DNA of 64,000 nucleotides from Takakia lepidozioides (Eukaryota; Plantae; Bryophyta). The position numbers and the translations under genes were made by a program. The notes under the pieces were generated by a model that did not search any database, had not been told where the DNA came from, and worked only from the letters and a program-made list of their open reading frames with translations. Shown here piece after piece: positions 12,621 to 54,335 of the stretch. Numbering within the stretch: the first letter of the stretch is position 1; every line of letters begins with the position of its first letter. The stretch lies in assembly GCA_030704615.1 (NCBI GenBank), contig CM060733.1, positions 35,278,001-35,342,000 on the forward strand, written 5' to 3'.

Positions 12621-15435
12621 ATGGCTGAGAGTAACTGTTGGTATGCTGATGGCGGTGCAAGTGAGCACATGACCGATAAGAGAGAGTGGTTCAAGAATTT
12701 GGAACCAATAGCTAAGGGGAAGTGGCATGTCGTGGTCGCTAACAATGAGTCTGTGTGGGTTGAGGGAGTTGGGGATATCGAGATTCTGAGTCTTGTTGGA
12801 GATAGGTGGGAGAGATGAGTGATTACAAGGCTTTGTATGTCCCTAAGTTGAAAAAGAATCTATTCTCAATCGGACAGGCAGCAGACAAGGGAATTGTCAC
12901 TACCTATAACAAAGAGAGTTGCAAATTAATTAGCAATGAGGGACGAGGAAGAATTGTGATGGTAGGTTTGCGTGAAGGGAAATTGTATAAGCTGCATTTG
13001 AAAGTCATTATACCTAAGAATATCGACAAGGGTTTGTTAAGTGGCAAAAATAAGAGCATCGCTTTCTTGAGTGAGTCAAACCCTAGCAATCTATATCTCT
13101 GACATTGTCGTTTGGGACATCTAAATCATGCTATGATCAAGAAAATGGAGGCATCACAGAGTGTAGAAGGTCTGAAGATAGGCAGTCTGAGTGAGGCATC
13201 TATCTTCTGTGAAGGATGTGCCTATGGCAAGAGCCATAGACAGAGCTTTCCTGTCAATGATGAGAGAGTAAAAGCTGAGAAAGTTGGAGATCTCTTACAC
13301 ACGGATGTGTGTGGACCGATGAAAATAGACTCCATCGGAGGGTCAAGGTATTATGTGGTTTTCAAAGATGATTTCTCAGGGTACAGAATGGATTTTTTAA
13401 GAAGAAGTCTGAAGTCATAGAGCACTTTCGTAAGGTCTTTAAGCAGACACAACAAGAAACAAAGACCAATGTCAAGATAGTTCGTAGCGACCGAGGGGGA
13501 GAGTTTATGAGTTCAGCTTTTAAAGAGCTTTGTAAGAAAGAGGGAATCCGCCATGAGCTGACAGCTCCTTATACACCGGAGCAGAACGGTGTTGCCGAGA
13601 GAGAAAATAGAACCGTCATGGAGTCAACAAGGAGTATGTTGCATACAAGCAATATTGGCCTGGAATTCTGGGCAGAGGCTGTACTAACGAGTGCTTACAT
13701 CCTGAATAGAACAGGAACACGGTTATTGGATGTGAAGACACCAATCGAAGCATGGTCAGGAGCAAGACCATCTATTGTTCATTTCAAGATTTTTGGATCA
13801 GATGCCTATTCTCACATTCCAAAGCAGATGAGATCCAAACTTGATCCTAAGTGCAAGAAATGTGCATTCATAGGATATTGCACCGAGAGCAAAGCATATC
13901 GGCTCTGGCACAATGACACTAAGAAGGTGATAATCAGCCGAGATGTTGTGTTTGATGAGGGATCATACACATCTACAACACAGTCATTGCAAACTCAAAG
14001 TGGAGTCTCCATCATGGATCTGTATGATGATCTTGAGGACTCAGTGGAAGTACCTGAACCAGTTGGAGCAGTGCAGGGAACAGTGGACGCAGAACCAGTG
14101 GGAGCAATGCAGGGAACAGTGGATGCAGTTGAGGCAACAGAAGAATTGATGGGAGCTCAAGAAGGACGAAATAATGAGCAAGCGGTATATGAACCAGTGG
14201 GAGTTCAGATTCAAGTGGTCCTTGATGGATGTGTGGAGAAACCATATGGGCAAATGACACGATACGAAACTCGATCACGGCAAGCACCAACGAGGTATGG
14301 TGACTGGGCTTATTTTGTCGAGGTGCAGTATTTTGCTGGAATAGCGAGTTCATTGGAAGAGCCCCATGATTATTGGACTGCAATCAACTCAGAACAGAGA
14401 GTCAAATGGCAGCAAGCGATGGACGAGGGTTTCAACTTTCTCACTCAAAACGAGACATGGTTGCTTACAGAACTACCTCGTGATCGCAAAGCGGTGCAAT
14501 GTAAATGGGTTTGCAAACTAAAAACAAAATCAGACGGAACAGTTGAGAGATACAAGGCACGATTAGTTGCCAAAGGATTCTCACAGCAGTATGGTATTGA
14601 CTATGCAGAAACATTTTCTCCTGTCGCCAAGTATGACTCCATTCGCACCATTCTTGCCATTGCAGCATCTGAGGATATGAATATCATGCAATTTGATATT
14701 AAAACCGCGTTTCTCTATGGAGAACTCGAAGAAGAGATCTACATGATCCAGCCGCCGGGCTTCATAGCACCAGGCACAGAGCACCTGGTATGCAGTTTGA
14801 AAAAATGTTTGTATGGACTGAAGCAGGCTTCACGAGTTTGGAATGCGAAGTTTGATAATTTTTTGCTTAGGTACAATTTGGTACCAAGTGCGGCAGATCC
14901 TTGCATTTACTACAGTAAGGAGAAGCCCAAAATCATCACATCTCTTTTCGTGGATGATGGACTGGCCTGTTGCGTTGAGTCAGCAAGGCTTGACAACATG
15001 TTTGAATACATGGGCAAGGAATTTGAAACCAAAGTAGGAGAGGCAGACTGTTATGTTGGTTTGCGAATTAAAAGAGATCGGCAACTCAGGACTATTTCAA
15101 TCGATCAGCAAGTCTACATTGAGAAGATGATCACGAAGTATGGTTTCGAAAATGCAATGGCAGTGACTACTCCTGCTGACCCTAATACTCAAATGAGTTT
15201 CTACTCTATTTCAGGTGACTCAGATAAAGAAGAAAACAAAAACATCATGGATTACCAATTTCCATATCAGGAAATGGTTGGAAGCTTGATGTTTGCAAGC
15301 ATCGGGAGTCGTCCTGACATCTCATATGCAATTAGTATAGTGACGAAATACGCATCAATACAGAGACATGTGCATTGCAACGCTGTGAAACGGATCATGA
15401 AATACTTGAAGGGAACATCTCATAAATCAGTATTT
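12621..15435 (+). mobile_element. Ty1/Copia pol (protease, GAG-pre-integrase, integrase, RT), truncated both ends
   Basis: WYADGGASEHMT; GHLN...CEGCAYGKSHR; HTDVCGPM; VRSDRGGEF; YTPEQNGVAERENR; KARLVAKGFSQQYGIDY; LYGLKQASRVWN; LFVDDGL; RPDISYA. Confidence 0.96.
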
Positions 15436-18108
15436 TCAAGAACACCAACATATGGGCATTTCATAGAATGAGTGACATGTGGGTAGAAATAACAAAATTA
15501 CTCTACATTCTTCGTGAAAATAGATGTTGGAAGACTGACTCGACGGATCCAAATGTGGACGCAAATTGTATGGGTTAGATTGATCCGAAATTGACAGGAT
15601 TACAATTATAAGACAGACACCCTTATTTGGAGTAGGAACCTTACGTCTGTGAGATGATGAAGGGCTAAGCATGTACCATGCATTTGTTAAAAATGTCAAA
15701 TTTTCAAAGACACCTTGTCAATATGGTCAGTTCCAACCTTACTGTGACGAGCTCTCATGAGAGGCTGGTACCCAATACCGACTTGAAGCTGGAGTGTGGA
15801 GTGTGCATTCATCAACCTCCATTTAGCCAAATGTACTCACTCGACGTAGCCTTGCCAGTAGCTACAGCACGAGAGGGGCACAAAAAGGAAACAAACATAT
15901 ATACAAGAGTAGTCATCGTGCACGATGGGTCACCATCTTCGCGTCTGCACCGTGCAATTGAGTGCACGCACCCACTTCCAACAACACAAGAACATGTAAT
16001 CAAATCAGCTGAACTTAATGAACTGGGAACTTAAAACGTTCCTGTGACAGCAGCTCATTAAAAAAAAGTCTTCTTGAACTACTCCACATTCTTTACTTCT
16101 AAGAAATAAAATTATGCAGGCCTATATGCTGTCTTTTATTACAGCACAAGGGGGACCGGAACATAGCTATCGCCATAGCAATTATACGAATGTTATGTCT
16201 GCTTTCCCAAGTGGCTCAACCAAACTAGACTGGACACCCAATTCTTTCCGCGTACATACAACAAGAAATTACCAACTGTTCTATCTGCATCTGCAACCCA
16301 TTCATAATATCCGTCAGAGTATTCTTAATCAGGCTTCTCTATGTCAAATTGTGCTCTAGACCCAAGAACGTTATATGTCATGGGCATTTGAGGGGTTTGT
16401 GATTTTGATTGTGAAGTACAAAAATCATTCCAGATCCCTCACCTCAACCGTTTCTTTGAGTCAACAAGTACAAGTTTTATAAGTTCGGTAGTAGAACTGT
16501 CGTAGCTCAGACCATGGGTCAAACAGGTACGTCACAGCTATGTCCTGTCACTGCAGCCTTGTGGGTATTTAAACCCTGTATAAACCTTGTAGATGCCTTA
16601 AGTTTAGTGACGTTGCTGGTCCTCAACACGAGTTCAACACTTTTAGATCGCAGTATGTCTAGAAAAGGTCAATCTTCACTGCTCATTCGACTCCGACTCC
16701 TATTCGACTTATGTGAATTATTGTCGAGTAGACATGTCATTTGAACCCCGTTGTGTTGTTGTGAATTACAAATGGGTTCCAGAGATCGGCTGTCCAACAG
16801 AAACCACCACAAAACTTGTGGTTGTGGACTCTGTTGATTTTCATCTTTTTTATGAACAAAATGGAACATTAGAGGCTCTCAGAAAAGCACCTTACCTCAT
16901 ATGCATGCCCCAAGTTGAGCATAATATTCCAAAGAGAAGGTGTCCCAAAAGCCCGAAAGCTTGCACCCCAAATGCGTATGTGAAAAACAAGTATTATGAT
17001 CAGCTCGGCGAGCGAAGAGCCCATTTTGGCTATCTGAGATCGTCTCAATGAGGAACGAACGATAGTATCTCGCAGTAGCTGGTTTCTCACAAAATCTCCC
17101 ATGTTTCCTTTGTCTTCGCTCTCCCTCTTGTCATGTCTAGCCCACGGAAGCAAAGCTTCGAAAGCGTCGACTCCCACAAAACGGTCTTCCCCACGGGCAG
17201 CTTCCCGAAAAGCACGCGTCAGTTTAGATTTACCACTAAGGAGGAGTGTATTGTTAAATTTGCTCTAAACTACAAAGGATTTTTTTATTTTAGAGAAGAT
17301 AGAAGTAGTGCTCAAGTATTTAGAGCAGGGCAGTGCCGCCAAAAGTTTCGCCCTCAGAGGCCAACGGCTCCATCGTCTCTCTCGATCTGCTACACCATCT
17401 CCTCTCAACGATTCTACGAAGGAGTTTCTCCTACGGCATTTGCTTCCATCACTCGCACAGGATCAAACATTATGTTTCAGCTTATATTCCGTTTATTCAC
17501 CCTATTCTGCACCGTCGACCCACAAGGAGCACCGATCAGCACCATTAGGTCTGAACCTTCATCAGGCAGAGGATTGATCTATTGGGCACACCAAGCACAA
17601 AGACGGGCGGCCCTGTCGTCAGACGAGAATAAGAGAGTTCTCTCCCCCTAGCCTTCAGGCCCGCATCCCCAATCAACGTCCCTTTCTGGAGGTAGGGGCT
17701 CAGCAACATGCTCCCATGGAATCGCCTTCTCAGGCCTTCACCTCCTAATAAGGATTGGAGAAGGCCATGCTCTTTCAGGAGCCAGTGGATAAGGATTACC
17801 CCCATACACTATGGATATTCAGAGTATCAACAAACAGGTTTCAAGTATGGAGGAATGTGGAATCTTGCTTCACTTCCCCGGGAGTGGATCGAGCGTTCGT
17901 AAAGGGCTGGGCGATCAGGAATCTAGGAGGCCAGGGTGAGCTCAAGCAGGCCTCTCTATTTTTTTCGAGACTCGAGAGGCGACATCCCCAGCCCTGCAAC
18001 TCAACCCCCACTTACTGGATTTTGACGTACTCGAGAACACGCCCCCTAGGGCGCATTCTGCATTCAAAAAAGGCATAATCTGCCCCCAAAATCCTCTACG
18101 CAATATTT

Positions 18109-37583: not shown

Positions 37584-38563
37584 GTTCAGACTTAGATGGT
37601 TGGGAAGGGGGAAGGGCAGTGTATGAGAGGAAAGCAAGAATGGGGGTACTGCAAATAATATGTTGTGTACAGTGGCCTACCTTTTGTACATGAAGTTGGT
37701 TGCCCTTCAGAATTTCCTCCTGGAAGCTCTATGCCGTAGCTCCACATGATCTAATCATATACCCCAGAATTGTGCTTGTAGCCTTATAGCCACATAATAT
37801 CCCACACCTAGTTTGGACTCTTCAAAGTAAGGGTTAGGGAGGGCCCCAGGCTATCAGAGTTGGTATTATAAGTAACCAGCGTAGCTACGGCGTGAGCCCA
37901 GCCCCGTGAGCCTGGGAGCTGAGCTCACGTTGTAGCAACAAAGTGTGAGCTGAGCTCACACTTCAGGGAAGTGTGAGCAGCACAAATCTGCTGGAGAAGC
38001 AGGTCCTATAGGCGAGGATTGCAGGAAGAGGGCCTATTACCGTGGACAAAACAAAGGGGGCCACCATGCACCATGTCTGCAATGCCTGCACAAAAAGAGG
38101 AATATGAAAATATGTGTCGTGCGCATACATATCGCTACACAACTACATCGCTGTCCAAAAACCACACAACACATGTGCACACCACACACTAGTATACCAC
38201 TAGTCCACCACTAGTCCAACCACTAGTCCAACCACTAGGCTACAACTAGTCAGTCACTAGGCTGCCACTATGCTGCCCACTATGGCAGTCACTAGTCCAC
38301 ACAATCGCCCCCCTAGCTGGTGCTTAGGTCCCTCTAAGTCCAGGTAGCCACAAGATGTGATAGTGACCATAGCCTCACTAAGTCCTCCACCACTATCCCT
38401 ACTACACTCAAACTCGATAGAGCAAGAGGCCGGGTGCAAGAGTTGCCCCATCGTTAGTCGCCGTCTTGCAACCTGTGAACTTGAGCTTGGGATCTCATGT
38501 ATTGACTCCTATGAGCTTGGCCTCCCATGTCTTGTTAGCTGCCTCCAGTCATGTCCACTGCCA

Positions 38564-38790
38564 CTATCCCAAGCAGTGTGGACACAACCAATCTCCGTCA
38601 GGAACCTTCTCAAGAGGTGGTGTCAAGCATCCCATATGCCAACCCCTTGAGCATCGATCACACACCAGCATGGTGGCTGCCCCTTTGGCAGACCCACAGA
38701 GCATGTACCTCAAACCTGCATGTACTACTGCCAAGTTTGGGTCAACTCTGCCATCGACATTGGGAAGGTGACATGGCGCACAATTACGCA
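38564..38790 (-). CDS. PHD finger at the integrase C-terminus
   Basis: (Y)MLC...MLVCDRCSRGWHMGCLTPPLEKVPDGDWLCPHC fits C4-H-C3 with the first Cys changed to Tyr. Confidence 0.9.
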
Positions 38791-38962
38791 CATGGTCCTT
38801 CCAAGTCACGCCATCCCGACCCTCCAAGATCAGGACCCCTGAGGGCAACACCTCTCGAACCCTCAGAATAACACGCCCTGCAGTAACATCCAGAGTCGTA
38901 GGAGCAGTCTGCTACAAATAAACATAGTCACCAGGGCTAAACCTCCGAACCCCAGGACGATA

Positions 38963-41684
38963 TCATCCACCACGTATAGTGGCATACCTCAACGTATCAC
39001 GGTGCTGTGCAATGGCAAGGTTCTCAAAAGCCATGGGCATGACTTTCTTGAACAACTCTGCACGCTGATCACATACACGTACCCACACGTCCGGGTCGTC
39101 AAGGTTAAGGACTTGAGCAGTGTCCCTACGAATGGCTGCAGGCAAATCCGGCTCTCGGCCAAAGAGAAGGAAATATGGTGAGAAGGAGGCAAGTGATGCT
39201 TGTTTGCTGAACCTGTAGCCCATGGCTAACCAAGGAACCTGAAGATCCCAATCTCCTATGTGTCCCTTCTGCAAGCCATACTTGCGCAAACCCATCTTTA
39301 CCGTCTGAACAACTCTCTCTGCTAAGCCATCGGCCTCAGGATGATCCCGAGAAGTGGTGCGGTGGTCTATCAAGGCTTTATCACACAAAGCCTGAAACTC
39401 CCCCAAAAACTCTCTCCCTTGGTCCGTGAGTACCTCAGCTGGAGCACCAAATCGGCTAAGCACACGATCCAAGAATGCATACGCAGCCCCCTCACTAGCC
39501 TTGTCAGGCAATGGAACCAACTCAATCCACTTGGAGAAGTGCTCCACCATCACCAACACATATCTGTGGTGGCGCATAGTCAGTGGCAACGGTCCTGCAA
39601 AGTCAAGACTCCACCTGTAGCCCAATCCCATGATTGGTAAAGGATGCAACTGTGGTGTAGGGGCGTTGAATGAAGCACGCACCCTGTCACACACCATGCA
39701 CCTAGCCACGAACTGTTGCACCTCTGTATGCATACCACGCCACCAATACTGCCCCTGCAGTAAACTGTGAGTGCGTCGCACTCCAAAATGCCCCAACTCC
39801 TCATGGGCATGCCGCACTAACCGTGCACGCTGTGTGGGGTGAGGCACAATCCACACCCGACCATCCTCCCACACTCGAAGTAGGTGTATCCCCTCCCACT
39901 TGAACCTCTTGGCTCGTTGCAGGATCCGATCCCTCTCCCTGGCAGTCACAATGGCTGTCGTGTCTCCCGTGCGGAGGTAGTCCAACACAGCCGAATCCTC
40001 ATGTATATCTCTGGCACCACCTAGCTCATCACTAGCCTCAGGGTCCTCAGACACTCCGTCTACAGTCATCCCTATTGTAGATCCAATCTGACCTCCCGAT
40101 GCCAAGATACACAAAAATGCAGATGCGTGCCATCCCGGCACCATCTCCTCGTCCGTCTCACCATGCCACCGAGCTCCAGTGTCATCCTGCTGGCTCATGC
40201 ATGGATTGCGACTCAATCCATCCGCATCCCGATTGACCAAACCCGGTCGATGCACAACCTGAAAGTCATACTCCTGGAGTATAAGTGCCCACCGTGCAAG
40301 CTTCCCCGTAAGCTTGTCTGACTCCATCAACCACTTGAGTGGCTGGTGATCCGTGACAAGGGTGAAAAGATTGCTGTATAGATAGCACCTGAAGTGTGCC
40401 ACGGCACACACTGCAGCTAAGCACTCTCCCTCATATGAGCTGTACTTAGCCTCTGCAGCGTTGTTCGAGCGGCTAGCGTAAGCCACTACGAACTCTCTTC
40501 CCTCATCATCCACCTGTGTGAGCACTGCTCCAAGCCCCAGCATGCTCCAATCCGTATGCAGCTGAAAGGGACGCCCCCTGATAGGTCGTCTCAAGATAGG
40601 CGCCGAGGTCAACCTCGCCTTGAGCTCTTGAAAAGCTCGTTCCTGCTCATCTTCCCACTGCCACTCCTGGTCCACCTTGGTCAGCTTGGTTAGAGCCTTT
40701 GCAATGGTACTAAATCCCTTGACAAACCGTCTATAATAGTTTGCCAACCCCATGAAAGCTCGAACTCGGCTCACATCCGTGGGGCGTGGAATTTGTGCAA
40801 TGGCCTCTACCTTAGTTTGCTGTACCCCCAATCCTCCAGGATATATCATGTGACCCAGATACTCAATCTGGTTGTGGAAAAACTTGCACTTCCCCGGATG
40901 CAACTTTCAATCCGTGCGCTCTCAAGCGCTCCAATACCACCTGAAGGTGTCTCTCATGCTCCTCCATCGTAACACTAAAGATGATGATGTCATCTATGTA
41001 GCACCGAGCAAAGTCCACCCCTGCTAGAATCCTATCCATGACTCTCTGAAACTCTGCAAGAGCATTCTTAAGCCCAAATGGTAAGAACCGCCACTGGTAT
41101 AGGCAATCCTTGCCGTGCTCATTGATCCCCCAGAATGTCGTCTTCTGCTTGTCCGCCTCCTTGATTGGCAACTGGTGATATCCGGATCGTAAATCCAAAG
41201 TGCTAAAGGCCTTAGCATGCCCGATGGCATCAAAGATCTCCTCCGGTGTTGGCATGGCATACTTATCGGACTTGGTCTGACGATTTACAGGCCGGTAATC
41301 ACCGCACATACGTCTCTCCGTCCAATTGCCATAGACATCCTTCTTGGCTGGCATCACTGTGGCTGAAGCATACTCTCCACCAGAGAGCTCCACCAAACCT
41401 GCCTCCCAGAGATCTTGAGTCCTCATCTGAATCAAAGACCTCTCCATGTCACTGTATCTATAGGGTCTCCGAAAGATTGGCGTGTCAGTGGCCAACTCAA
41501 TACGGATCTCTTGACCCTTCAGTGCTCCCAAGTCCTTCAAACTGAAGGCAAAGCAATTCCTGTAAGCCCTCAGGAACCGCCGTATACGTCGTCTCTCTCC
41601 TCCGGTGACAATGGGTCCAATGTCAGGCTCCCAATTGTCCTCCGTAACTACAACCTTAAGTCCAGTGGGCTTAGAGGTAGCCAT
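38963..41684 (-). CDS. Gypsy RT - RNase H - integrase
   Basis: RMCGDYRPVN, LDLRSGYHQL, LPFGLKNA, CYIDDIII; LHTDWS...YSSYEGECLA...TDHQPL; HEELGHFG...CMVCD; WSLDFAGP, LTDQGREF, HPEADGLAERVVQTVK. Confidence 0.97.
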
Positions 41685-41689
41685 GGAAG

Positions 41690-42610
41690 CACCATTGCTT
41701 GCCCCAACACTTGACGACGTGATGCCTCAGAAAGAGACGACACCGCCGTGGTACCAGTGGTAAAACCCATTGCCCGCTCACGCTCGTCAGCATTAGGCTC
41801 CACTAACTGCTGCAACTGAGCATCCCACAGGAGGCCAGGTCCACTATCCCGGAAAGCATGCGATCCTGGGAAGCTGAGCAGTGTAGGTAATGCTGCTCGT
41901 GGTTGACCCACCTTGTTGACCACTGCCAAAGGCGAACGGTCATCGTGTCTCACACGCTGAGACTGCCTCCCTGTGTCCAGAATGTTATCCACTGTGAGAT
42001 GTGCTGGCCGCTGCACCCCATCAAATGCACGCTTGAGCAGTGCGGGTGGCATCAAGTTAGTCCACCATAGCCGTGGACGATGAGCCGTGACCCCACTGTA
42101 GCTGCATCTAGCAACACTGCTGACCCAAGCCACGACCGGACTTGATGCACACTGGCCATCACCCTGGCCCGAGAATCGCCCATCAGTGGCACATTCTCCA
42201 AGATGTATGCTGGAGATACAGCTTGATGAAGCTGCAAGTGGCGCAAAACCCGCACCATCTCCCAAAACAGACCCGACCTCGAGTCTCGCAATCCATTGCC
42301 ATGCCCGGCTGATGAATGCCCTTGGCAGGCCAACCTGCCACTACCAGATCAATGGAGCCAACCCGCTCCAAATCCTGCGCCCCCAGCAACGAAATGTCTG
42401 CTGGCAAGGCCTGCTGATATCCACGAATTGCAGACACCGACAACAACTCAGGGTACCGCTGCACCAACTGAGCAACATGGCGAAGTGAAACGCGTCGTGC
42501 AGTCTCATCCCTCTCCACATACAGGTAACGCCGAACTCGTACACCTGCCTGTAACACAGCAGCCAATCCGGTGCTGATCCCGCCAAACAAGTCCAGAAGA
42601 CAAATGCCTT
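41690..42610 (-). CDS. DNMT3-like C5 DNA cytosine methyltransferase domain within pol (single-base frameshifts near 42329 and 42088)
   Basis: Motif I LLDLFGGISTG; II YLYVERD; IV DLVVAGWPCQGHS (restored across a 1-bp deletion); RSGLFWE; VI YILENV; VIII AHRPRLWWTNL; IX ERERAMGF; X RRQVLGQAM. Confidence 0.93.
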
Positions 42611-42949
42611 CATCCGGATACTGCCACACAATAGGTGTGGTGTCCAATGGAGACAATTGAGGTGGTCCTGGTGCAATCCCCACACTCTCCTCCTCCTCTC
42701 CTGACGGTACAAAAGCCTCCACCCAGGCTTGTTGCACCCGTCGATCAGCATCCCGCTGCAAATCCTTGCTCGTGCCCCACAATGGAGTCTGAGCAACCAT
42801 GGTAGGCAACTCCGCCATACCATACATGTCATCCTGCTCTCCCGGAGGTGGTACATCCTCTGAATGAGCATTGCCCTCAAGCAACTCTCTAGGCCAACTC
42901 ACTGCCGCTGTGAATGCTGCTAGTGTCGGCATCTTGCCTCGCTGGGCAA

Positions 42950-43330
42950 CCGCAACTCCTCCTATGAACGTCACAGGCTCCCCTGACTGCCATGCAGGCC
43001 TATAGGAAGCTGACTCCTCCCAAAAATCCAGGGTGAAGCCCATGGGGTACAACACTGCCCCACCAACCAGGACATCGTATGAGACTGCGTCTGTCACAAT
43101 GGCCTTGGCTCGCATCACTGAGCCATCTGTAGGGTGATCCGGCCGTAGTCTGATAGCCAACTCACGCCGTGTCATGCCCCGAGCCTGCTCCGATCCTCCC
43201 AGAGACGTCTGTATCTGGAAAGGACAAGGCTCCATATCCGCCTCCGTGAGGCCCAAGCCTGCAATAGCAGCTCTGCCCAGCATCAATGGCTGAGCTCCCG
43301 AGTCCAACAGACCCGCAGTGGCCGGTACCT
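42950..43330 (-). CDS. Gypsy aspartic protease
   Basis: LLDSGAQPLMLG active-site motif and downstream YDVLVGGAVL. Confidence 0.85.
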
Positions 43331-45188
43331 CTTGCCTGCCGGTCCACTCAAACAGAAAATGCCATCCTGGTTGTCTAACATGACAACTCCAGGTGTCACC
43401 ATGGCGCGCTCAATGGCTGGCCTAGCTGGCAGCTCCATCAACCTGGCAGCTGCAGCTTGCCATGGCGCCGCCGTGGCAGTCTTGACCCTCAAATCCGAGG
43501 ATCCCTCCGGCACTACACCTCCCACTATCTCCGCAGAAGATGAAGTAACCTCCCCACTCTCACAGAGTGTAGCTGCCAGCCTGAACACCTCAGCTGGTCT
43601 TACCCCCGGCGTCGCAATCATGGTAGCCGAGAACAATGGAGCCTGGCACACAGATGTGGCCGCTCCTAGCAGCACACTAGCTGCCGTAGCCTTGGCAACA
43701 CTAGGTAGTGGTGCTACCCGTGTAGCTCTCCCCAATGGCATAGTAACCTCCGCCTCGGTAACAGTCGGGCGAGAACTAGGTGCCATGGATGGCGTCGACA
43801 CTGTCTCCGCCAATGTGAATGACTGAGGAAGCCTAGCCTGACGGCTTGCCTCCCCACGCTGTGGATCCAACTCCACCTCTGCACCTCGTGGCTCAGGAAC
43901 TCGTGCTGCTCCTCGAGTCACGGCTGCAGCAGACTCCACCTGCACTAGTGGTAGTGCTGCTCCACACATGAATCCCATGCCTCCCATATCTCCTCCCTCA
44001 GGAGCAGGAGGTGGACCATCCGGCCTTAGAGCCGGTACCACCTGAGCTGTAGCCATGGCAGCGAGCCTCTGCTCTAGCTGCTGAAGCCGGTTGGCCATGC
44101 CTTGGTCAACACCCTGACCTCCGCGTCCTTGGCCATGTTGAGCTTGCCCTTGGCCTGCACCTCGTGGCTGGCCACCTCGTCCTCTCTGGGCTGCTCCACC
44201 TCGCCCCCGGCCACCATTGTTCCCTTGGAACTGGCCTGGGCGCAACTCAGGATGCAAACCATAACACTGGGCCTCTCCATGCCCGTGCTTGCCACAATGC
44301 CCACACTGCAACTGTGCAGGCTGTGCATGTGCCGGCCCTTTGCCTCCCTCTGGGCAATCCTTCTTGACATGGGGTCCTCCACATGTCCAGCACACCACAT
44401 CCGCCCGTTGTTGGCCAGCAAATGAAGGGAGAGACCCCTGCATCTGAGGTCCTCTCTGCCCTTCCCTGAGCTTCACCTGAGCCCCCTTGTTGCCTTGAGC
44501 ACGTTGAGGTAGTGGTTGGCTAGGAGCACCACTACCCCGTGGTGTCTCCTTAGCAATCCCACCATGACCACTCGTTCCTCCACCATGTTGAGCTCTATCC
44601 GCTCTGCCAGCAAAAACACATTTGCTAAGGTGGGTTGGGCCGCTTGTAGGAGAGTTGCATCCCGCACCCTTCTCCTCAGCTCCTTGTCCAATATCCCATA
44701 CCAGAATTGGACTGCCTGAGCTTCCGTAACCCCTTGGGTTACATTTATCAAGCGCCTCATGCGAGTGAAAGCCTCCCTCAAGCTCTCGGTCGGCTTCCGT
44801 TGGAACTCTTGCAAGCTCCGCAACTTCTCTGTCCTCACCCCTTGTAGTTCCGCAGTACTCCTCCACTCCGACTCAAATGCCCCCGCCTGAACTCATGGTA
44901 ATCATCCATAGGCGGCCCCTCAAGGTGCTGAAACAGCCCCTTCCATGCCATGAAAGGCGTAAATAGTTGTGGATTGCGCATTTGCTGCAAATCACACCAA
45001 CTATCAAACTCTTGGATAAAATCATCCAACTCGATGGTGCCCACCGCCCCAGAGTACCTTCGTGGCCCCTTGGTAGCTCCATACATCTCCTCCATTGTGT
45101 CCCACAACAATGGCAAAGAAACAACTTGCACCGCCGGTATGAGTCCTCCTGATTCACAATCCGAATCAGAACCTTCCGTAGAAGACAC
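43310..45188 (-). CDS. Gypsy gag (frameshifted) with two CCHC zinc knuckles
   Basis: ELDDFIQEFDSWCD; LQEFQRKPTESLREAFTRMRRL...QFWYGIL; CWTCGGPHVKKDC and CGHCGKHGHGEAQC. Confidence 0.88.
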
Positions 45189-45949
45189 AGAGGTGAAGGT
45201 GGCCTAAACCGCACACCTCGTCTCGTGTACCCACTAGTATCGCTAGTGCTCGAACCGGCACTGTCCCCAGCAACTAGTGGCACCTCCGTGTTGACACTCA
45301 ACCGGTCATGAACATGTCCCTAACCCCCTCTCCACAAGGTAACCGGGTAGAGAACCTGTTGCGGCTTATGGTTTGGAATACTAAGTTCCTAACATAGCCT
45401 ACACCTGTACCTGCATCCACCGCAAGCACTCCTATGGTTGGCTGGTCATCACCTCCAACCTCACCACAGGAGAAACAATGATGGTCTGGCTGGTCATCAC
45501 CCCAGCCTCACCATCGACAGCATGCTCTAGGACTGGCCGGTGATCAAATCCGGACCAATCACCTATAAAAACAAGCGCCCACACAAAACTAGCATGGCGC
45601 ACAGTCAAGCATGCAGGTATGGAGGGATCCAAACACAAGAAATCAGAACGACAACTCCCCCACACCAAAAACAACTCCACGGTGTTGCTCCTGCAAGGAC
45701 ACCCCAGCCCAAACCCGGACTGACTCTTGCCTCCACCTACGGAAAGGTCTTGGCCTAATGAGAGGGTGGAAACTACGAGGAAGAGAAGCTAAAGCAATGC
45801 CTAACCCCAGCATGCCCTCATCCCAACACTCTTCCTCTCCTCTCTTCCCTCCTCACTTGCATGACCATGGGAATATCATGAAGATACTCCTCAAACCGCC
45901 CTCCACGAGCTTCAAAATTCGGCCTTCCAACCACATGCCAGTCCTTAGG

Positions 45950-46632
45950 CAGTCCACAGTGCCTCCACGAGTCAGCACAGGCCGTCCACAGGTCACACGG
46001 GCCACCACAGACCAGCACAGGCCCACACAGCTCACTGGTCACAGCCGTCACAGTCCCACAGGCCACTGGCACAGCCTGTCACAGCCCCTCATCACAGCCT
46101 CACAGCCCGTCACAGCCCCAGCTCGGCCTGTCACAGCGCCCTCACAGCCCGTCACAGCCTCAGGGCCTCACAACAGCCCCTCACAGCCTCACGCCTCACA
46201 GCCCCACAGGTTCCACAGCCCCTCACAGCCCGTCACCCCAAGGCCATGGCACAGCCTGTCACAGCCCCGCACAGCCGTCACAGCCCACAAGGCCAAGGCA
46301 CAGCCTGTCACATTCTCACAGCCCCACAGCCCAGGCACGGCCGCGCCCTCACAGCCTGCCTCAGCACAGCCCCACGGGCCACAAGCCCCACAGCCCTCAC
46401 ACCCCGCCAAGGCGCCCGTCACAGCCCACCCCAGCCGTCGCCCTTCACAGCCCCAAAGGCCTTGTCTCAGCCCGTCACAGCCCCACAGGCCACTGGGCAC
46501 AGCCCACAGCCCCACAGCCCGTCACAGCCCACACAGGCCACAGTCACAGCCGCACAGCCCGTCCACAGTCACAGGCCACTCCAAAGGCCTCACACGCCTT
46601 TCACAGCCCGTCACAGCCTCAGCACAGCCCCA
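45950..46632. repeat. CACAGCC(C)/GTCACAGCC minisatellite in the Gypsy leader
   Basis: Dozens of degenerate CACAGCC units over about 700 bp. Confidence 0.9.
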
Positions 46633-48580
46633 TCCATGCCGCTCTAGCAGTTTAGCCATTTCTCCAAGGGGTTTAGCCACGCCAAGCTAGGGTTTGTGTC
46701 TCTTGGACTCTAGGCTTCTTTCCACCGAGCTATGGCGGCTGTGAGGAAATCAGCAAGGTATTCTTGCTCTTTCGGCTCCCACACACCACCATAGTAGCCC
46801 TAAGCCATGAGGTGGTTGCCACAAACCAAGCCTTCTTTCTCACTTAGCCTCCCCAAACACGCCACTAAACTCAATGGCAAACAACCAAGCCCTGCTGGTT
46901 CCCAGCCCTTGTGAGCACTCATTCAAGCACTCTCCTTGGCCATAGCATCTGTCTTAGAGCCTATTCCAGCCCCCTACACACCTGCTGCTTCAAGAGTTGC
47001 GCTCCCTTCAAGCTGAAGTTGAAACCCCAACTCACATAGGCCCTACAAGTGCTTTTCTTTCACTCCAAGTGGAAACCAGCCCTAGACCTTCCGTTCTAGC
47101 TCTCTAAGGCTTGAAAACAAGAGCCTCAATGGGCTGAAGGCATGCTCCACACATGCCCCACTCTCACCATAAGAGAATCAGCTCCTTTGCTTCATTTCTT
47201 GCACCCACAAACCTGAAAATACAAGCTTCAGCAGGCTGAAAGCATGCTCCACATGCCCTACAGGGAAACCACCCCCCTTCCTTCCTTTCTTGCACTCCCA
47301 CACCTGAAAGTGCAAGCCTTCACCAAGGCTGATAGATGCTGCACACATGCATTGCCCTCACATAAGGGAAGTCAGCCCTTCCTCTTCTTTGCTTGCCCTC
47401 CAAGCTTGAAGATGGAAGCTTCAATGAGCTGAATACATGCTCCACACATGCAATCTCTTCACACAAGAGATATCAGCCCCCTATCTTGGCTCCTTGGCTC
47501 CTTGATGCTCTCTAAGACAAGACTAAGCACTCCACAGCCCTTGCCAAGCTCCTGAATAAGGCTTATATTTCCAGCCACAAGACACTCCTCTTGTGGTGTA
47601 AGAACTTTTCTTCCAAGCTCTGAAACCCTAGGTGCACATTCCATGGCCTTGCCGCACCTCTTAGCTCATGTTCCAGCCCCGCTCTTGCCATGGAAGAGCC
47701 CTCATATCGCTGGAGTTTCAGATTGAAACCCCCAACTCAACATAGCCACAAATGCATTGGCTTGCATACAAGAGAAATCAGCCATCTCTTTTCACTCATA
47801 CCTCCTTATGAGCTTGAAGTTGGAGCTCCCGATAACTGTGACTTACATTTAACACCCTCGCAGCTCCACATTGCTGCAGCTCCTTAACTTGGCCTGCAGC
47901 TGAAGAAGACGACCACCAGTTCACCCACTCGAGACCAGCATCTCCCCCGCTTCACACTAGAAGCCCAAACTTGGTTGCCATAGCGTTGAGCTATGCAACG
48001 CCGCTCTTCAACATAGGCTACCCGCCTCTCTATCCATTGCAAACCTGCAACCTGTTCGCCTTTGCACTCTATCCACTTTGGATAGGCTCATGCACGGATC
48101 CCTGCACTCTAGGCTGAACCGCTTCTCATGAAAACACAAGTGCTACAAAGCAACTCGAACCTGGCACTCACAGACTCGAGCTGATCTTTCTCGAGTGATA
48201 AAGAAGAAGAATACAAGCACAAGCTCATGCGAGCTCACAAAGCTGAAGCATAAACTCATGCATATATAACCTCATCACTCAAATACAAGTCAAGCCAAGT
48301 GCACCCCACGCATGGGGAATCCACACTACGGCGCCATAGCTAGGCGCGGTGAGGCTCAACTCGAGAAAGATGAGCCTTCCGCGCTTGCCGTGAAGATAAC
48401 CACTCCAGGGCCTAAATCTGCCTTGACCCCTGGATTGACACTTGGGCCAATCCCAAATGTCAATATGTAAAAGCTAGCTATTTCCTAGCTAGTTTCACAC
48501 TAGTGGTAAAATAACTTGACATATGGCAGATCTGAGCTCAGAATGATTGACACACTTTATTTAAATTCACAGATAGACGC

Positions 48581-50600
48581 TTACAATGAATGGCATGTGC
48601 ATTTTCCCTGGTTCCATGAACGAAATGTATGTGTTTGTCCTAAATGCAAAGTTTTCACACGATAACCTGGAAACCAGCATGGGAAGCGGGCATGGCTCGT
48701 ATGTGTTGAAAGAGAATCTGGCGGAGCCCTACGTGAGGTGTCCCGCTGCAGAAGGGTGATAACTTCTCCGTAGCCTAGTGTGGCTTGGTGAATGAATTGG
48801 TCTCTCTTACCGTCGCAGCACATAATTACAAGGTATGTGTAATATTGATGTTTGCAGGGGACCCACTTCCCTCTCATGCCGAGAGCGCCCTCACGCATCG
48901 TTACAAAATCCGGACAAGTGCACGTAGGGAAATTCCCCACGGTAACCTGATATTCTTTGCCATGAAGAACTGAGCCAATAGACAACACTGTATAAATCCG
49001 TCCATACCCCGGGGCGGGGACTTCGGTGATACGAGTCACCCGAGCCTGCAAAATTCTAGCCGATTCCATCTTGCAGTTGTGATGTGCACCCGAAGCAACA
49101 CGACGCACAGTTTTTCCATCTCTTTTTGTTGGGTGGGAGTCGGCACCGGGTGGAGGCATTGCCGGAGCATGTGGCACATCTGTGCCCACAGTGCATGAGG
49201 GCACCACCCGGGACCGTGCAAGACAGAACCCTCCCTCCTCCAACATGCTTATCTTGGTTGGTGACAGCGACGTCCCAAGTTTCACAGGCTAAATTGCGGG
49301 GGGAGGGGGTTTCATCATCACCGAAGGACGAACTGTTCCCTTGACAAGGGCACCACTCGGGATCGTGCAAGACACAACCCTCCCTCCTCCAGCATGCTTA
49401 TCTCGATTGTTGACAGCGACGTCCCAAGTTTCACAGGCCAAATTGCGGGGGGAGGGGGTTTCATCATCACCGAAGGACGAACTGTTCCCTTGACGCATCG
49501 TGCCATATCGTCTGGGCAGAACCAGAACTTGTGGTCCTTTGACTCCCCACTATGATAAGGTCGGAACAACCATGTGAATGTTGGAGCTTGAGTCCCCCTG
49601 GAGCCTTTGCATATTTTTTATTTACAATTCTTGAAAGAGGGGGTCCGAATTGCCATGCAAGCCACTCTAGATCCTAGTGGGGTGCGTTCTATATGCCACT
49701 CACTGTCAATGCAATCAGATTCATGCACCAAGGACACCACCTCCTCCAATGGGATTCTTGCTGTTGTGTTTGCATGATCTGCACCTGCTCCACTGGAAGA
49801 GGACCCACATGGGAAAGGGCGGGCACACGACTTAGTCTGCACCGGAGACACCTTTGGTAAACCGACCTTTGAAATTTCAATCCAATGTCGTTGTGGATGT
49901 TCGATGTTTTTGTCCTGCACCAAGGGTGCCCGTCATGTTTCTTGTCCATGCCCTACAAAAGCCCAGCTAGTCCACTAGAAGACGTGGGAGGGTTGAGCTC
50001 AAACAAGATGTCCCCATCAAACTCTACTGGCACATATTGAACCCGCTGCACCAAAAGGGACTCCTTATCAACAAAACGCAGCTCGCTCTTGCACCCAGGC
50101 ACCCCGACGAGGGCTTTCAATTTCGGAATGACATTCGTTATCTCCTGCAATTTGTCATCATCCCAGAATGGAGTCTGCACTGGCGGAGGAATCTCAGAAA
50201 CATCCTCCAAGAACGAGTCTGAAAGAGTCATGAATGTGGTGGATGTGTTCACCTCTTGTTTCACATGAACTGGGCCCTTCTGCTACACGACCGATGCTGC
50301 AGTGCCAGGGGTAAGTACTGATCATGCTGATTGTCTTCTCTCTTTTCCAAGGACGCGGTATGTGCCTAGAAGGACCCTCCACTTCCTTCCACACTCGCCA
50401 ACCAATGGTCTCTCCAAGTGCCCAGAATCCAAATTCCCATCCTCGTCATACACCTCTTCTTGAAAAAACAGATAACCCAATTCCAGAGGGAACACTGTAA
50501 CCAGCTCATCCTCACGAACAATTGCAAACCCATCGTCATCTGCAGTGGCAGTCAGTGGAAGACTACCTGCATTGGAATGAAGGTCGGCCACAGACTTCAT
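48581..50600 (-). pseudogene. Mutator-like SWIM transposase derivative lacking the DDE core
   Basis: Homologous to both ends of the 1180-aa protein (FDGDILFELNP, GMDKKHDGHPWCRT; FWFCPDD, IWPVKLGT, GYGRIY, VTVGNFPTCTCPDF...PCKHQY). Includes a roughly 150-bp tandem duplication at 49195-49495. Confidence 0.85.
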
Positions 50601-51629: not shown

Positions 51630-53271
51630 TTATTGCAAGGCGAAGGCGAAGACATGCCTGTCGGACAACGTCCCTGCCCACATTGAAGCACCTAAGGGAC
51701 AAAGCGGGTGGTTAGTAGCATGCGGCATGCAATTGCAATCGGGCCAGGGGACAAAATGTGCACGTGAAGGCTTACCCGTGCCGCATGTGAGGTCAAGAAT
51801 CCGCCCTTGGACATCCGAGCACGTCTCCATGAGGGTTTGGATGAAAGCGGGGCTCCGGGTCCGGCTGTACCGCCACGGTTTGCCTGTCTTTGTGTCCTTC
51901 GGCATACTGGAGTGGGGCACATAGTTGTAGAGGACATCGTAGGTAACAGGGTCCACAGCGACATCAACAAGACGACCGTCATTGCGGAATTTGAACGTAG
52001 ACCCTCTCTTCACAAAACAATATGTCTCAAACACCAATGTCTGCACATCCAACAAAAGAGGGATCCACTCCAGGGTCTAGTTTAGATACACCACAATATG
52101 AAGTGAATGCAATAGATTGATAACTTGTACTCTGGCCCTCTGTTTGCAACCCCTGCGTATTGATGCAGAACCATTTTTTCAAGAGGACCAGGGTGACACT
52201 TTTTGGTGTCCACCTTGCCACAACATTCTTTGTGGTCTTCCCTCTTGTGGCAAGGACCACCATACATCCACCGTCATCCAGGAGCATCCCGCCAGCCCAA
52301 ACCCGGCTCTCCAGTAGTCTCCGTAAACCTGTTCCAGGTGGGCACACTATCCAGGCCCTCCAACAGCTCCCCATCTGGAATATCGAGGAGAATCATATCG
52401 CAGGCTCTCTCCACCTCACCACCCCCCCCCACCCCCCCCCCCCCCCCCACCGAGTGCTCTTGCAATCCGGCTCAAAGCCGTGAAGAATTCCATCATGGCT
52501 TCCAAACCAGGGGTGTCTTTAGGCTCTGTAGACAGTAGCCCTCTTCTTGGCTTTCCCCTTCAGCTCTCCAGAGACTTGCTGTGTGCCACCCTTCTTCGCC
52601 CTGGCAGCCAGAGCATCAAGAAAGCTCTCATTGACGCGCATTGGATGATAGTTGGGGGGATCTAACTTTGGCCTTTGTGGAAACGTCACCACCAAATACC
52701 GCCGTGTAGGCTCGCCCTCAAATGCCAACTTCTTGGCAGAGCCAGTCCCAGTCCGAACTGACTTGGGAACCCCGGACGACCGGTGACTTGTAGTAGCAGC
52801 AGCAGTCGCAGACCTTGCACAAAGTCGTCGTCGGAGTCACTCCCTTGGGGCCCCTTCTGCGCCTCCTCTGGTGCCCGGTGGTTTCTGTTTTTTGGGGTTA
52901 CTTTACTCCCATGTTTCCGTCCTTTTCATTTGTCTTTTATTCTTCTCATTCAATTCTCCTGAATACCTGCCTAAGCAAGCTCTGCCGCTTTCCTGGACTT
53001 GACAAGCGCTTTCGCCTCCTTTGGACCCAGCGGAGGCAGCGGAGCTCGGTTTGGTCGGGCCTCCGCATCCAGCTTCAATTGGAACTCGGATGAGTCGAGC
53101 GAGCCGGGCGGAAGGTCCACATAACAAGGGCAGTCGCGCAAATGCTTCAGATGCCACTCCTTCACGATAACGTCAGTGTACATGGAGTCAGCTCCAGGGT
53201 TCCTCCATGCGAAGAAGAATGGCGGCTGGAAGGACAGATGGACTTTCTCCAACAGGGAGAACTTACAGTAC
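51630..53271 (-). pseudogene. Intron-containing beta-class N4-cytosine/N6-adenine DNA methyltransferase-like gene (degenerate, 5' part missing)
   Basis: Order IV-VI-X-I: ACDMILLDIPDG (52380-52405), LLDDGGCMVVL, RSPAFIQTLMETCSDVQGRILDLTCGTG|ASMWAGTLSDRHVFAF, joined in frame by GT-AG intron 51692-51775. Other acceptors at 52041 and 53272. Confidence 0.75.
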
Positions 53272-53599
53272 CTGCATTCAAAAAACACAGACAGAATCAC
53301 ATCCACTTTTCCAGACTGGGTCCGAAATGGCTAAGTCCCAGATCTGACTGGGCCCGGAACTGGAAAAATGGCGCCGAATTTCCAGAATATGTGCCATCCG
53401 CCCCAGGGACTTAGCCATTTTCAGACCCTGTACTGGAAAAATGGGCCGGAGGGTCTGAAACCGGACGACATTGGTGGGCATAACGTGCCAAAAAGTGGAC
53501 CGCAGGCGAAAAACTCTAAGTTGAGTGACTGATTAGCAAAAAACGCGAAAAAAAATGAAAAATTGTTGATGAAGGGTCGATACGGGCATCTGTTGATGG

Positions 53600-54335
53600 A
53601 TATTTGGCGCCGTTTTTCCATCCTGCAGATGATCTCTTTCGGCCACTCCCCCCGAGACGACTCCATCCGTGCGGCCTTGGATGGAAATACGGCGCCGCTT
53701 TTCCATCGAGGGATGTTCTCTGTCGGCTAGATGTCGGCCTCTCCCCCGAGACGACTTCATCCGACGGGCCTCGTCCTGAAATTCGGCGCCGTTTTTCCAT
53801 CCGGGGGATGTTCTCTGTCGGCCAGGTGTCGGCCTCTCCCCCAAGACGACTTCATCCGACGGCCTCGAATGGAAATCGGCGCCGTTTTCCATCGGGGGAT
53901 GTTTCTCTGTCGGCCAGGTGTCCGCCTCTCCCCCGAGACGACTTCATCCGAACGGCCTCGGATGGAAATTCGGCACCGTTTTTCCATCCGGGGGATATTC
54001 TCTGTTGGCCAGGTGTCCGCCTCTTCCCCCGAGACGACTTCATCCGAACGGCCTCGGATGCAAATTCGGCGCCGTTTTTCCATCCGAGGGATGTTCTTTG
54101 TCGGGTAGGTGTCGTCCTCTCCCCACGAGACGACTTCATCCGAACGGCCTCGGATGGAAATTCGGCGCCGTTTTTCCATCCGAGGGATGTTCTCTGTCGG
54201 CCAGGTGTCGGCCTCTCCCCCCGAGACAACTTCATCCGAACGGCCTCTAATGGAAATTCGGCGCCGTTTTTCCATCCGAGGGATATTCTTTGTCGGCCAG
54301 GTGTCGGCCTGCCCCCTGAGACGACTTCATCCGAC
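53600..54335. repeat. Tandem array, about 8 x 92-96 bp, with palindromic core GGAAATTCGGCGCCGTTTTTCC
   Basis: GACTTCATCCG-type anchor recurs near 53664, 53758, 53853, 53945, 54041, 54137, 54233 and 54328. Confidence 0.95.

Follow-up and report, generated by a model that had tools for sequence, protein, structure and literature searches.

The closest described relative of the element analyzed here is KnitGypsy-Dnmt3 of the alga Klebsormidium nitens, a Gypsy element that contains an intronless DNMT3-like domain and whose repeats, arranged as in DIRS elements, are given as A-coding-B-A-B (de Mendoza et al. 2018, PMC5890265). Klebsormidium is the only source of Gypsy elements with a DNMT3 mentioned in the sections of that paper dealing with them, and its domain did not methylate DNA in yeast, a result that the authors call inconclusive. 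The same paper describes SymbioDIRS-Dnmt3 of Symbiodinium, in which a DNMT3-like domain is likewise combined with split direct repeats and which methylates CG de novo in yeast, and it proposes cDNA methylation for DIRS elements. SymbioDIRS-Dnmt3 encodes a tyrosine recombinase, whereas the element presented here encodes a DDE integrase (PF00665) and is flanked by 4-bp target duplications. Since 2018, when the sole Gypsy example showed no activity in yeast, the benefit that a transposon might draw from encoding a silencing enzyme has been a standing question.

Other known systems share single traits with this element. The EpiLTRs/DAM-LTRs (bioRxiv 10.64898/2026.05.21.726589) are also Gypsy-type elements that combine a methyltransferase with a chromatin reader, but there the methyltransferases are an adenine methylase and a cytosine methylase sister to DNMT4, the reader is a chromodomain, and the authors distinguish them from “streptophytes (Gypsy-DNMT3)”. 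The Tf1/Sushi elements and plant Tcn1 (Neumann et al. 2019, PMC6317226) resemble it in the lack of a tRNA primer site and in predicted self-priming, but differ by their chromodomains and a conventional pair of LTRs; the accessible text of that survey never uses the word methyltransferase. In two-LTR circles of foamy virus, cleavage of a palindromic junction by a DDE integrase can give rise to processed ends (Delelis et al. 2005, PMC1180852). There, the palindrome is the joint of the cDNA ends, whereas in the family described here, it would be inside the repeat, and the joined ends would be inside the inserted copy. In the passages concerned, later papers refer to Gypsy-DNMT3 elements as streptophyte, and the term “streptophytes” of the 2026 preprint may include land plants. 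Our search of openly accessible main texts gave no account of land-plant copies, of the stop codon, of self-priming or of the integration route reported below. The kind of element itself is the one published as KnitGypsy-Dnmt3.

We analyzed a stretch of 64,000 nucleotides from the land plant Takakia lepidozioides (contig CM060733.1, positions 35,278,001 to 35,342,000), which we refer to as the window; the host of KnitGypsy-Dnmt3, in contrast, is an alga. The window contains a 10.4 kb Ty3/Gypsy element on the minus strand (38115-48521), flanked on both sides by the 4-bp target duplication TATG (38111-38114 and 48522-48525), and the empty insertion site was seen in contigs as a direct joint of 38109 to 48521. 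Read on its own strand, the element starts with TGTC at 48521 and ends with GACA at 38115, that is, it has TG...CA ends and a target duplication in the range of 4-6 bp. The order gag-PR-RT-RH-INT and the DDE integrase are those of Ty3/Gypsy elements, but no pair of long direct terminal repeats is present at the ends. The element is therefore Gypsy by its enzymes, not a canonical LTR element. A DIRS/PAT-like tyrosine-recombinase element was ruled out, because the PF00665 integrase is present and no recombinase match was obtained in the scanned frames of the element.

In the direction of transcription, the element begins with terminal segment A (48196-48521, 326 nt, TGTC...TATCA), delimited by contig joints and by homologous A segments in related loci, with a predicted transcript start near 48371. 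The predicted self-primer binding site CTCGAGAAAGAT (48184-48195) adjoins the CA end of A and is a perfect 12-nt complement to 48371-48360. It is followed by a long 5' non-coding region (45204-48183) containing tandem repeats at about 45950-46650 and 47070-47480, which is covered less evenly by other copies. The gag region (43283-45203) encodes two CCHC-like knuckles; its match to PF03732 is weak (E 0.015), and its N-terminal piece is 67-91% identical to related loci. The aspartic protease (LLDSG, 42915-43310; weak match to PF13650, E 0.053) precedes the DNMT domain, and the reverse transcriptase, RNase H, integrase and PHD finger are all downstream of it according to Pfam matches. The reverse transcriptase frame (YIDD, 40863-41726; PF00078, E 9.3e-25) is followed by the RT end, RNase H and the zinc-binding and core domains of the integrase (38963-40906; PF17917, PF17919, PF17921 and PF00665), and then by the C-terminal part of the integrase and the PHD finger (38564-38911; PF00628, E 3.4e-11, and alignments). 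The putative polypurine tract CTAGGGGGGCGA (38305-38316), a motif also present ahead of the first B segment (B1) in related loci, adjoins terminal segment B (38115-38304, ending in CGACA), which has homologues in related loci and, as contig joints show, is joined to A in other copies. An earlier reading of the sequence alone had recognized PR, the DNMT motifs and RT but had overlooked the PHD finger, the absence of an LTR pair and the split repeats.

The copy in the window is dead. Frameshifts near 44554 (gag), 43308 (separating PR from gag) and 40905 (RT, into the next frame), as well as a deletion near 44844-44877 in gag, interrupt its frames. In the PHD finger, the first Cys is lost, and two premature in-frame stops are located upstream of it. 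In homologues, gag and PR form one continuous frame. The single-base breaks near 42084, 42327, 43308 and 44554 are absent in same-family contigs, including other copies at 43308, and hence are specific to this copy or, as the comparison is with contigs rather than raw DNA reads, conceivably assembly errors in the window. Contrary to the proposal that only single-base deletions break the DNMT domain, the 11 letters of the window at 41680-41692 correspond to 351 in contigs of two studies (runs X9 and X13, the latter perhaps RNA), which means that the window lost about 340 bases: the last part of motif X and the linker preceding RT, with its in-frame stop. The family itself is a high-copy Ty3/Gypsy family. 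Two runs of raw RNA reads with another species label yielded 0 reads of it, a result uninformative as to expression. The run X9 contig (2,292 nt, matching window positions 41485-43388) originates from a very small run with another species label; it differs from the window by only 14 letters over the PR-DNMT part and contains neither the frameshifts nor the deletion. One of its ends looks like what we take to be a pUC-type polylinker, and it may be a cloned piece of the family.

The C5-methyltransferase domain extends from 42620 to 41693 on the minus strand, between the protease and RT, and is spread over three frames; the motifs are thus present where the sequence-only reading had put them, collinear with PR and RT. 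The N-terminal piece (42327-42620), recognized by translation and by alignment of a homologue to motif I of DNMT3A, contains motif I (LFGGISTG) and motif II (YVE) and continues as far as the Pro of motif IV. It is in the frame of ORF 42183-43409, which, as had been noticed, also encodes the protease (DSG near 43304). The middle piece (42085-42327) contains the catalytic Cys of motif IV (CQ), the ENV of motif VI and a stretch reaching motif VIII, and the C-terminal piece (41693-42085) contains the HRxR of motif VIII, the target-recognition region, motif IX and the start of motif X (AHRPRLWWTNL, ERERAMGF and LGQAM). WP|CQG spans the first break, and HRPR follows the second. The motif numbers follow the usual numbering of the enzyme family.

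The expected match to a C5-methyltransferase profile was obtained for the middle piece (PF00145, E 6.6e-08), with a score of 32.8 bits where the curated cut-off is 22. Neither of the remaining two pieces gave a Pfam match alone, and the long ORFs, when left unrepaired, gave no match to PF00145; homologues score 32.5-42.7 bits. In the family alignment, motifs I, IV (PC), VI (ENV), VIII (RxR), IX and X are in the canonical order, with motif X of the window shortened by the deletion. A search with the C-terminal piece yielded 72 proteins, the best named ones being from Calypogeia, Marchantia, Sphagnum and Riccia (66-76% identity), in line with the suggestion that the known algal elements extend to land plants.

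The resemblance to DNMT3 suggested by the motifs was borne out by both sequence and fold searches. Compared with solved structures, the Calypogeia homologue P0004 matched human DNMT3A best (E 8e-11), ahead of DRM (4e-07), HaeIII (4e-04) and also DNMT2. The intact homologue P0009 was modeled with a pLDDT of 92.9, and a Foldseek search with this model gave DNMT3A with an E-value of 7e-19 and a TM-score of 0.83 on the target; all 31 rows listed are DNMT3A, 3B or 3C structures. DNMT3A/B thus ranked first in both searches, ahead of DRM, DNMT2 and bacterial enzymes, without rearrangement of the domain. Intact members, which the earlier reading had proposed to look for, do exist: besides P0009, there are relatives in Marchantia polymorpha with an unbroken Gag-PR-DNMT frame. 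These frames are annotated as hypothetical proteins (e.g., Mp_4g09160), which makes the question of the enzyme's benefit testable in a model plant, and they may lead to errors when the host DNMT3 genes of bryophytes are counted.

In an alignment of 103 domains, 98 have the catalytic Cys, 102 have the Glu of ENV, and 100 and 101, respectively, have the two Arg of motif VIII; the Pro of the PC motif is replaced by Glu in 24. We then compared the window with eight related loci, using only the DNMT and RT rows, because frameshifts in the loci compromise part of the rows for RH and INT. For DNMT, pN was 0.18-0.35 at a pS of 0.73-0.79, and for RT, pN was 0.15-0.25. The dN of DNMT was about 0.2 at saturated dS, and dN/dS was 0.05-0.08 in the four of eight pairs for which dS could be estimated, the other four being saturated. 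The low pN relative to pS indicates that the DNMT domain was under purifying selection nearly as strong as that on RT. We regard it as virtually certain that the DNMT is a genuine domain of the family, and the structural model leaves little doubt that its fold is of the DNMT3 type. The conserved residues and the selection suggest that the family enzyme is quite probably active.

The domain had also been proposed to be part of the element rather than a later insertion, and this is supported by its position in related loci, where it is the same, and by the absence of a duplication or an intron at the domain. We screened 80 related loci from metagenome contigs, which are not independent, since several are the same insertion assembled repeatedly and most belong to one subfamily. 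In 71 of these, PR is located just before and/or RT just after the DNMT (37 with both, 19 with RT after only and 15 with PR before only); eight have neither, and one has RNase H before the DNMT.

Longer proteins display two domain orders. PR-DNMT-RT-RH-INT(-PHD) was found, complete or partial, in Klebsormidium, Closterium and Marchantia. RT-RH-DNMT-INT-PHD was found in Monoraphidium, partly in Cymbomonas, and in many unnamed proteins, and accounts for 57 of 139 new representative matches; in another 53, the DNMT is not accompanied by any transposon domain, perhaps owing to the shortness of many of them. Examples of the second order, which includes chlorophyte proteins, are L074 (137-4492), P0069, P0100 and P0140. 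The PHD finger accompanies the element in both orders. A DNMT tree (71 rows; a quick method applied to element-borne domains only) and an RT-RH-INT tree (46 rows; FastTree, with 10 of 55 chosen proteins dropped because domains were short or missing) both part the two orders at 99% support. As both trees are without an outgroup, the two orders may reflect one capture followed by relocation, or two captures. In the DNMT tree, the window is on a short branch and groups with Marchantia and Calypogeia at 99% support, at a large distance from Klebsormidium P0123 (KFL_009030040). The latter has the order PR-DNMT-RT-RH-INT and is on the window's side of both trees, and we infer that it is a member of the named KnitGypsy-Dnmt3 family.

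The lineage is large, since a profile search gave 425 clusters at E-values up to 1e-30. Named relatives are from Marchantia, Calypogeia, Riccia, Sphagnum, Closterium and chlorophytes; no vascular plant is named among the matches listed, and no relative was found in the viral contigs searched. The C-terminal 200 residues of P0069, past its PHD finger, contain VVDPWAGTG and VVTSPWF. We take these motifs to be adenine-methylase-like, in which case this protein would have two methyltransferases, as in EpiLTRs.

The sequence-only reading placed the DNMT inside a Gypsy Pol polyprotein between PR and RT. The position is correct, but the polyprotein is not continuous: in 49 of 50 loci spanning both domains, the linker between DNMT and RT contains a stop codon (TAG in 42 and TAA in 7). 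In 48 loci, the stop is followed by CAA or CAG, mostly as TAG-CAA. In the main subfamily, it is located about 95 codons past motif X, RT is in frame where no indel intervenes, and the divergent members L038, L053, L058 and L077 also retain it. In the window's clade, the DNMT is thus the tail of a Gag-PR-DNMT frame. Database proteins reflect this arrangement, as many end shortly past the DNMT and others begin just ahead of RT.

The full UAG-CAR-YYA context, known as the readthrough context of tobacco mosaic virus (PMC2754532), is present in five loci, while the main group has CAA-CCC after the stop. In L038, L058 and L077, there is no Met between the stop and RT, which favors readthrough over re-initiation. 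Synthesis of RT-RH-INT-PHD very probably proceeds by readthrough of a leaky stop. Being the tail of Gag-PR, the DNMT would be made in far larger amounts than RT, and the stop implies a control of the amount of enzyme. Outside the window's clade, there are unbroken frames of about 2,300 residues (P0090, P0093 and P0097), and Klebsormidium P0123 is among several relatives without a stop in the predicted protein, indicating that bulk synthesis of the DNMT is not needed across the kind. KnitGypsy-Dnmt3 was described with the domain in the Pol ORF (PMC5890265), in contrast to the conserved stop in the window's clade, and the description given there mentions no PHD finger, self-priming, palindromic junction or A-coding-B form, features that distinguish the window family. 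The stop between DNMT and RT makes the elements described here a variant of KnitGypsy-Dnmt3-like elements and not the same family.

The ends of the element differ from those of textbook LTR elements. Contigs of the same species join them both ways: 48521 to 38115 with two to four letters between them (B/A joint), and 38304 to 48196 (A/B joint). Two related loci, L048 and L057, have the KnitGypsy-like arrangement A-coding-B-A-B with 4-bp duplications, and four others (L012, L036, L062 and L068) are A-coding-B with duplications; thus, the family, as judged from these loci and the joints, has the former arrangement, while the window copy is only A-coding-B. The B/A joint is GACA-NN-TGTC, in which NN is GC, AC, AT or GT, and the inserted ends correspond to this joint minus the two central letters, which is what processing of ends by an integrase would be expected to produce. 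At the A/B joint, the end of A is mostly joined to letters past the polypurine tract; L062 retains letters of the primer site, and L048 retains letters of the polypurine end. These A/B joints look like joined cDNA ends.

No tRNA site follows segment A; instead, the adjoining stretch can pair with the middle of A, over 12 nt in the window. Of 15 loci, only 7 have such a complement (9-16 nt) at the corresponding site, with letters that differ among loci. The predicted RNA fold of the self-priming helix has a z-score of -5.6 in the window and a weak one of -2.0 in L065, which has different letters. By these signs, B behaves like a distal U3 and A like a proximal U3-R-U5.

The use of the two palindromes is strongly one-sided. 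None of 15 starts of the first A segment (A1) is preceded by B, while 8 of 13 B1 ends are followed by A (Fisher p 0.0004). A symmetric two-repeat circle would generate A-B-A-coding-B as often as A-coding-B-A-B, and these counts therefore argue against a simple circle model. The second B is nearest, or tied, to the B1 of the same element in only three of six elements. Integration probably occurs through the internal palindrome, and from the split ends it follows that work on an internal junction may be routine for a DDE integrase. L031, L033 and L062 are internally deleted, and in them B directly adjoins coding sequence or sequence derived from A. The joint is at AGTT-GTGG, where B starts, and this location of the joints indicates that such deletions may arise during reverse transcription.

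We consider it somewhat probable that the window contains a dead copy of a family that makes a DNMT3 at Gag level by means of a leaky stop, packages it, and likely methylates new cDNA before insertion. According to this proposal, the RNA would start inside A and prime itself just after A, as Tf1-type elements do. Ribosomes would mostly stop past Gag-PR-DNMT, with occasional readthrough yielding RT-RH-INT-PHD, and the protease would free the DNMT inside the particle, where it would meet naked cDNA. Reverse transcription would generate B-A-coding-B-A; the integrase would then open the internal B/A palindrome instead of the outer ends, and the outer ends would become the A/B joint of an A-coding-B-A-B copy. 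Copies of the A-coding-B form, such as the one in the window, could have any of three origins: a circle with one repeat, a double cut, or recombination between B segments.

The PHD finger would likely steer integration. A Trp two places before the His marks PHD fingers that read H3K4me3; the finger encoded by the window lacks it and more likely reads unmethylated H3 tails. Methylation of the cDNA might protect it from host sensing or deamination, or might preset the chromatin state at insertion, and such benefits were proposed in the 2018 paper (PMC5890265). We put the chance that cDNA is the main substrate of the DNMT at about even. The CpG observed/expected ratio of the element (0.48) is within the range of neighboring transposons (0.41-0.75), and its composition is thus no sign of self-methylation; CHG composition was equally uninformative. 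More tentatively, an old green-plant Gypsy lineage extending from chlorophytes to liverworts and mosses could share capsid-level DNMT3 via a leaky stop, pre-methylation of cDNA, self-priming, and routine integration through an internal palindrome that seals the cDNA ends inside the copy. If true, this integration route would differ from that of textbook LTR elements, and the methylase of the element itself might steer it.

Alternatively, the enzyme might act in the nucleus rather than on packaged cDNA, methylating integrated copies or the insertion site and thereby damping the family or marking new insertions; a braking function was raised by de Mendoza et al. (PMC5890265). Any active role, including this one, would be consistent with the catalytic residues and the purifying selection, and a PHD finger is part of the element in either domain order. 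However, the DNMT sits in the Gag-PR frame or, in the second order, inside Pol, and the products of these frames are normally packaged. Moreover, the domain by itself has no targeting module, and the PHD finger is encoded beyond the stop in the window's clade. We regard a nuclear role as rather unlikely.

A role in integration, in which the domain binds or methylates one of the two B/A palindromes and so chooses which one the integrase cuts, seems improbable to us. It would agree with the one-sided use of the palindromes and with the co-occurrence of split repeats and DNMT in the window family and Klebsormidium. In addition, the palindrome GACAGCTGTC holds CAG/CTG on both strands, and the central letters GC, AC, GT and AT are the expected products of deamination of methylated CHG, but host CHG methylation after insertion explains these changes equally well.

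Still less credible is a domain kept as a non-catalytic DNA- or RNA-binding module. The inactivity of the Klebsormidium domain in yeast (PMC5890265) and the Glu in place of the PC-motif Pro in part of the domains would be compatible with it, but across green algae and bryophytes, 95-99% of the domains retain the Cys, ENV and both Arg. Finally, the DNMT3-like nature of the domain and the presence of host DNMT3 genes in bryophytes would be compatible with a host retrocopy or gene fragment that landed in this one element, but such an origin is refuted by the fixed position of the domain in dozens of loci and in other genera, lacks any duplication or intron in its favor, and is at odds with the DNMT and RT-RH-INT trees splitting the same two groups and, more weakly, since the runs were found using this stretch, with a contig depth on the DNMT equal to that on PR and RT.

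The surroundings of the element contain further transposon-like sequences. An apparently young Copia-type integrase frame of 699 codons is open on the plus strand (13372-15468), and, labeled by eye, Helitron-, hAT-, LINE- and Copia-like remnants are scattered over positions 1-37000. Beside the Gypsy insertion, an apparent Mutator-type element contains a SWIM-like frame (48581-49288), and near it, on the minus strand (51630-52480), is a broken frame with DMILLDIPDG and, further on, ILDLTCGTG, which gave no Pfam match. These motifs resemble what we take to be the catalytic and SAM-binding motifs of an amino (N6A/N4C) DNA methyltransferase. A tandem array with a 96-bp unit and open frames in several phases is located at 53500-54320.
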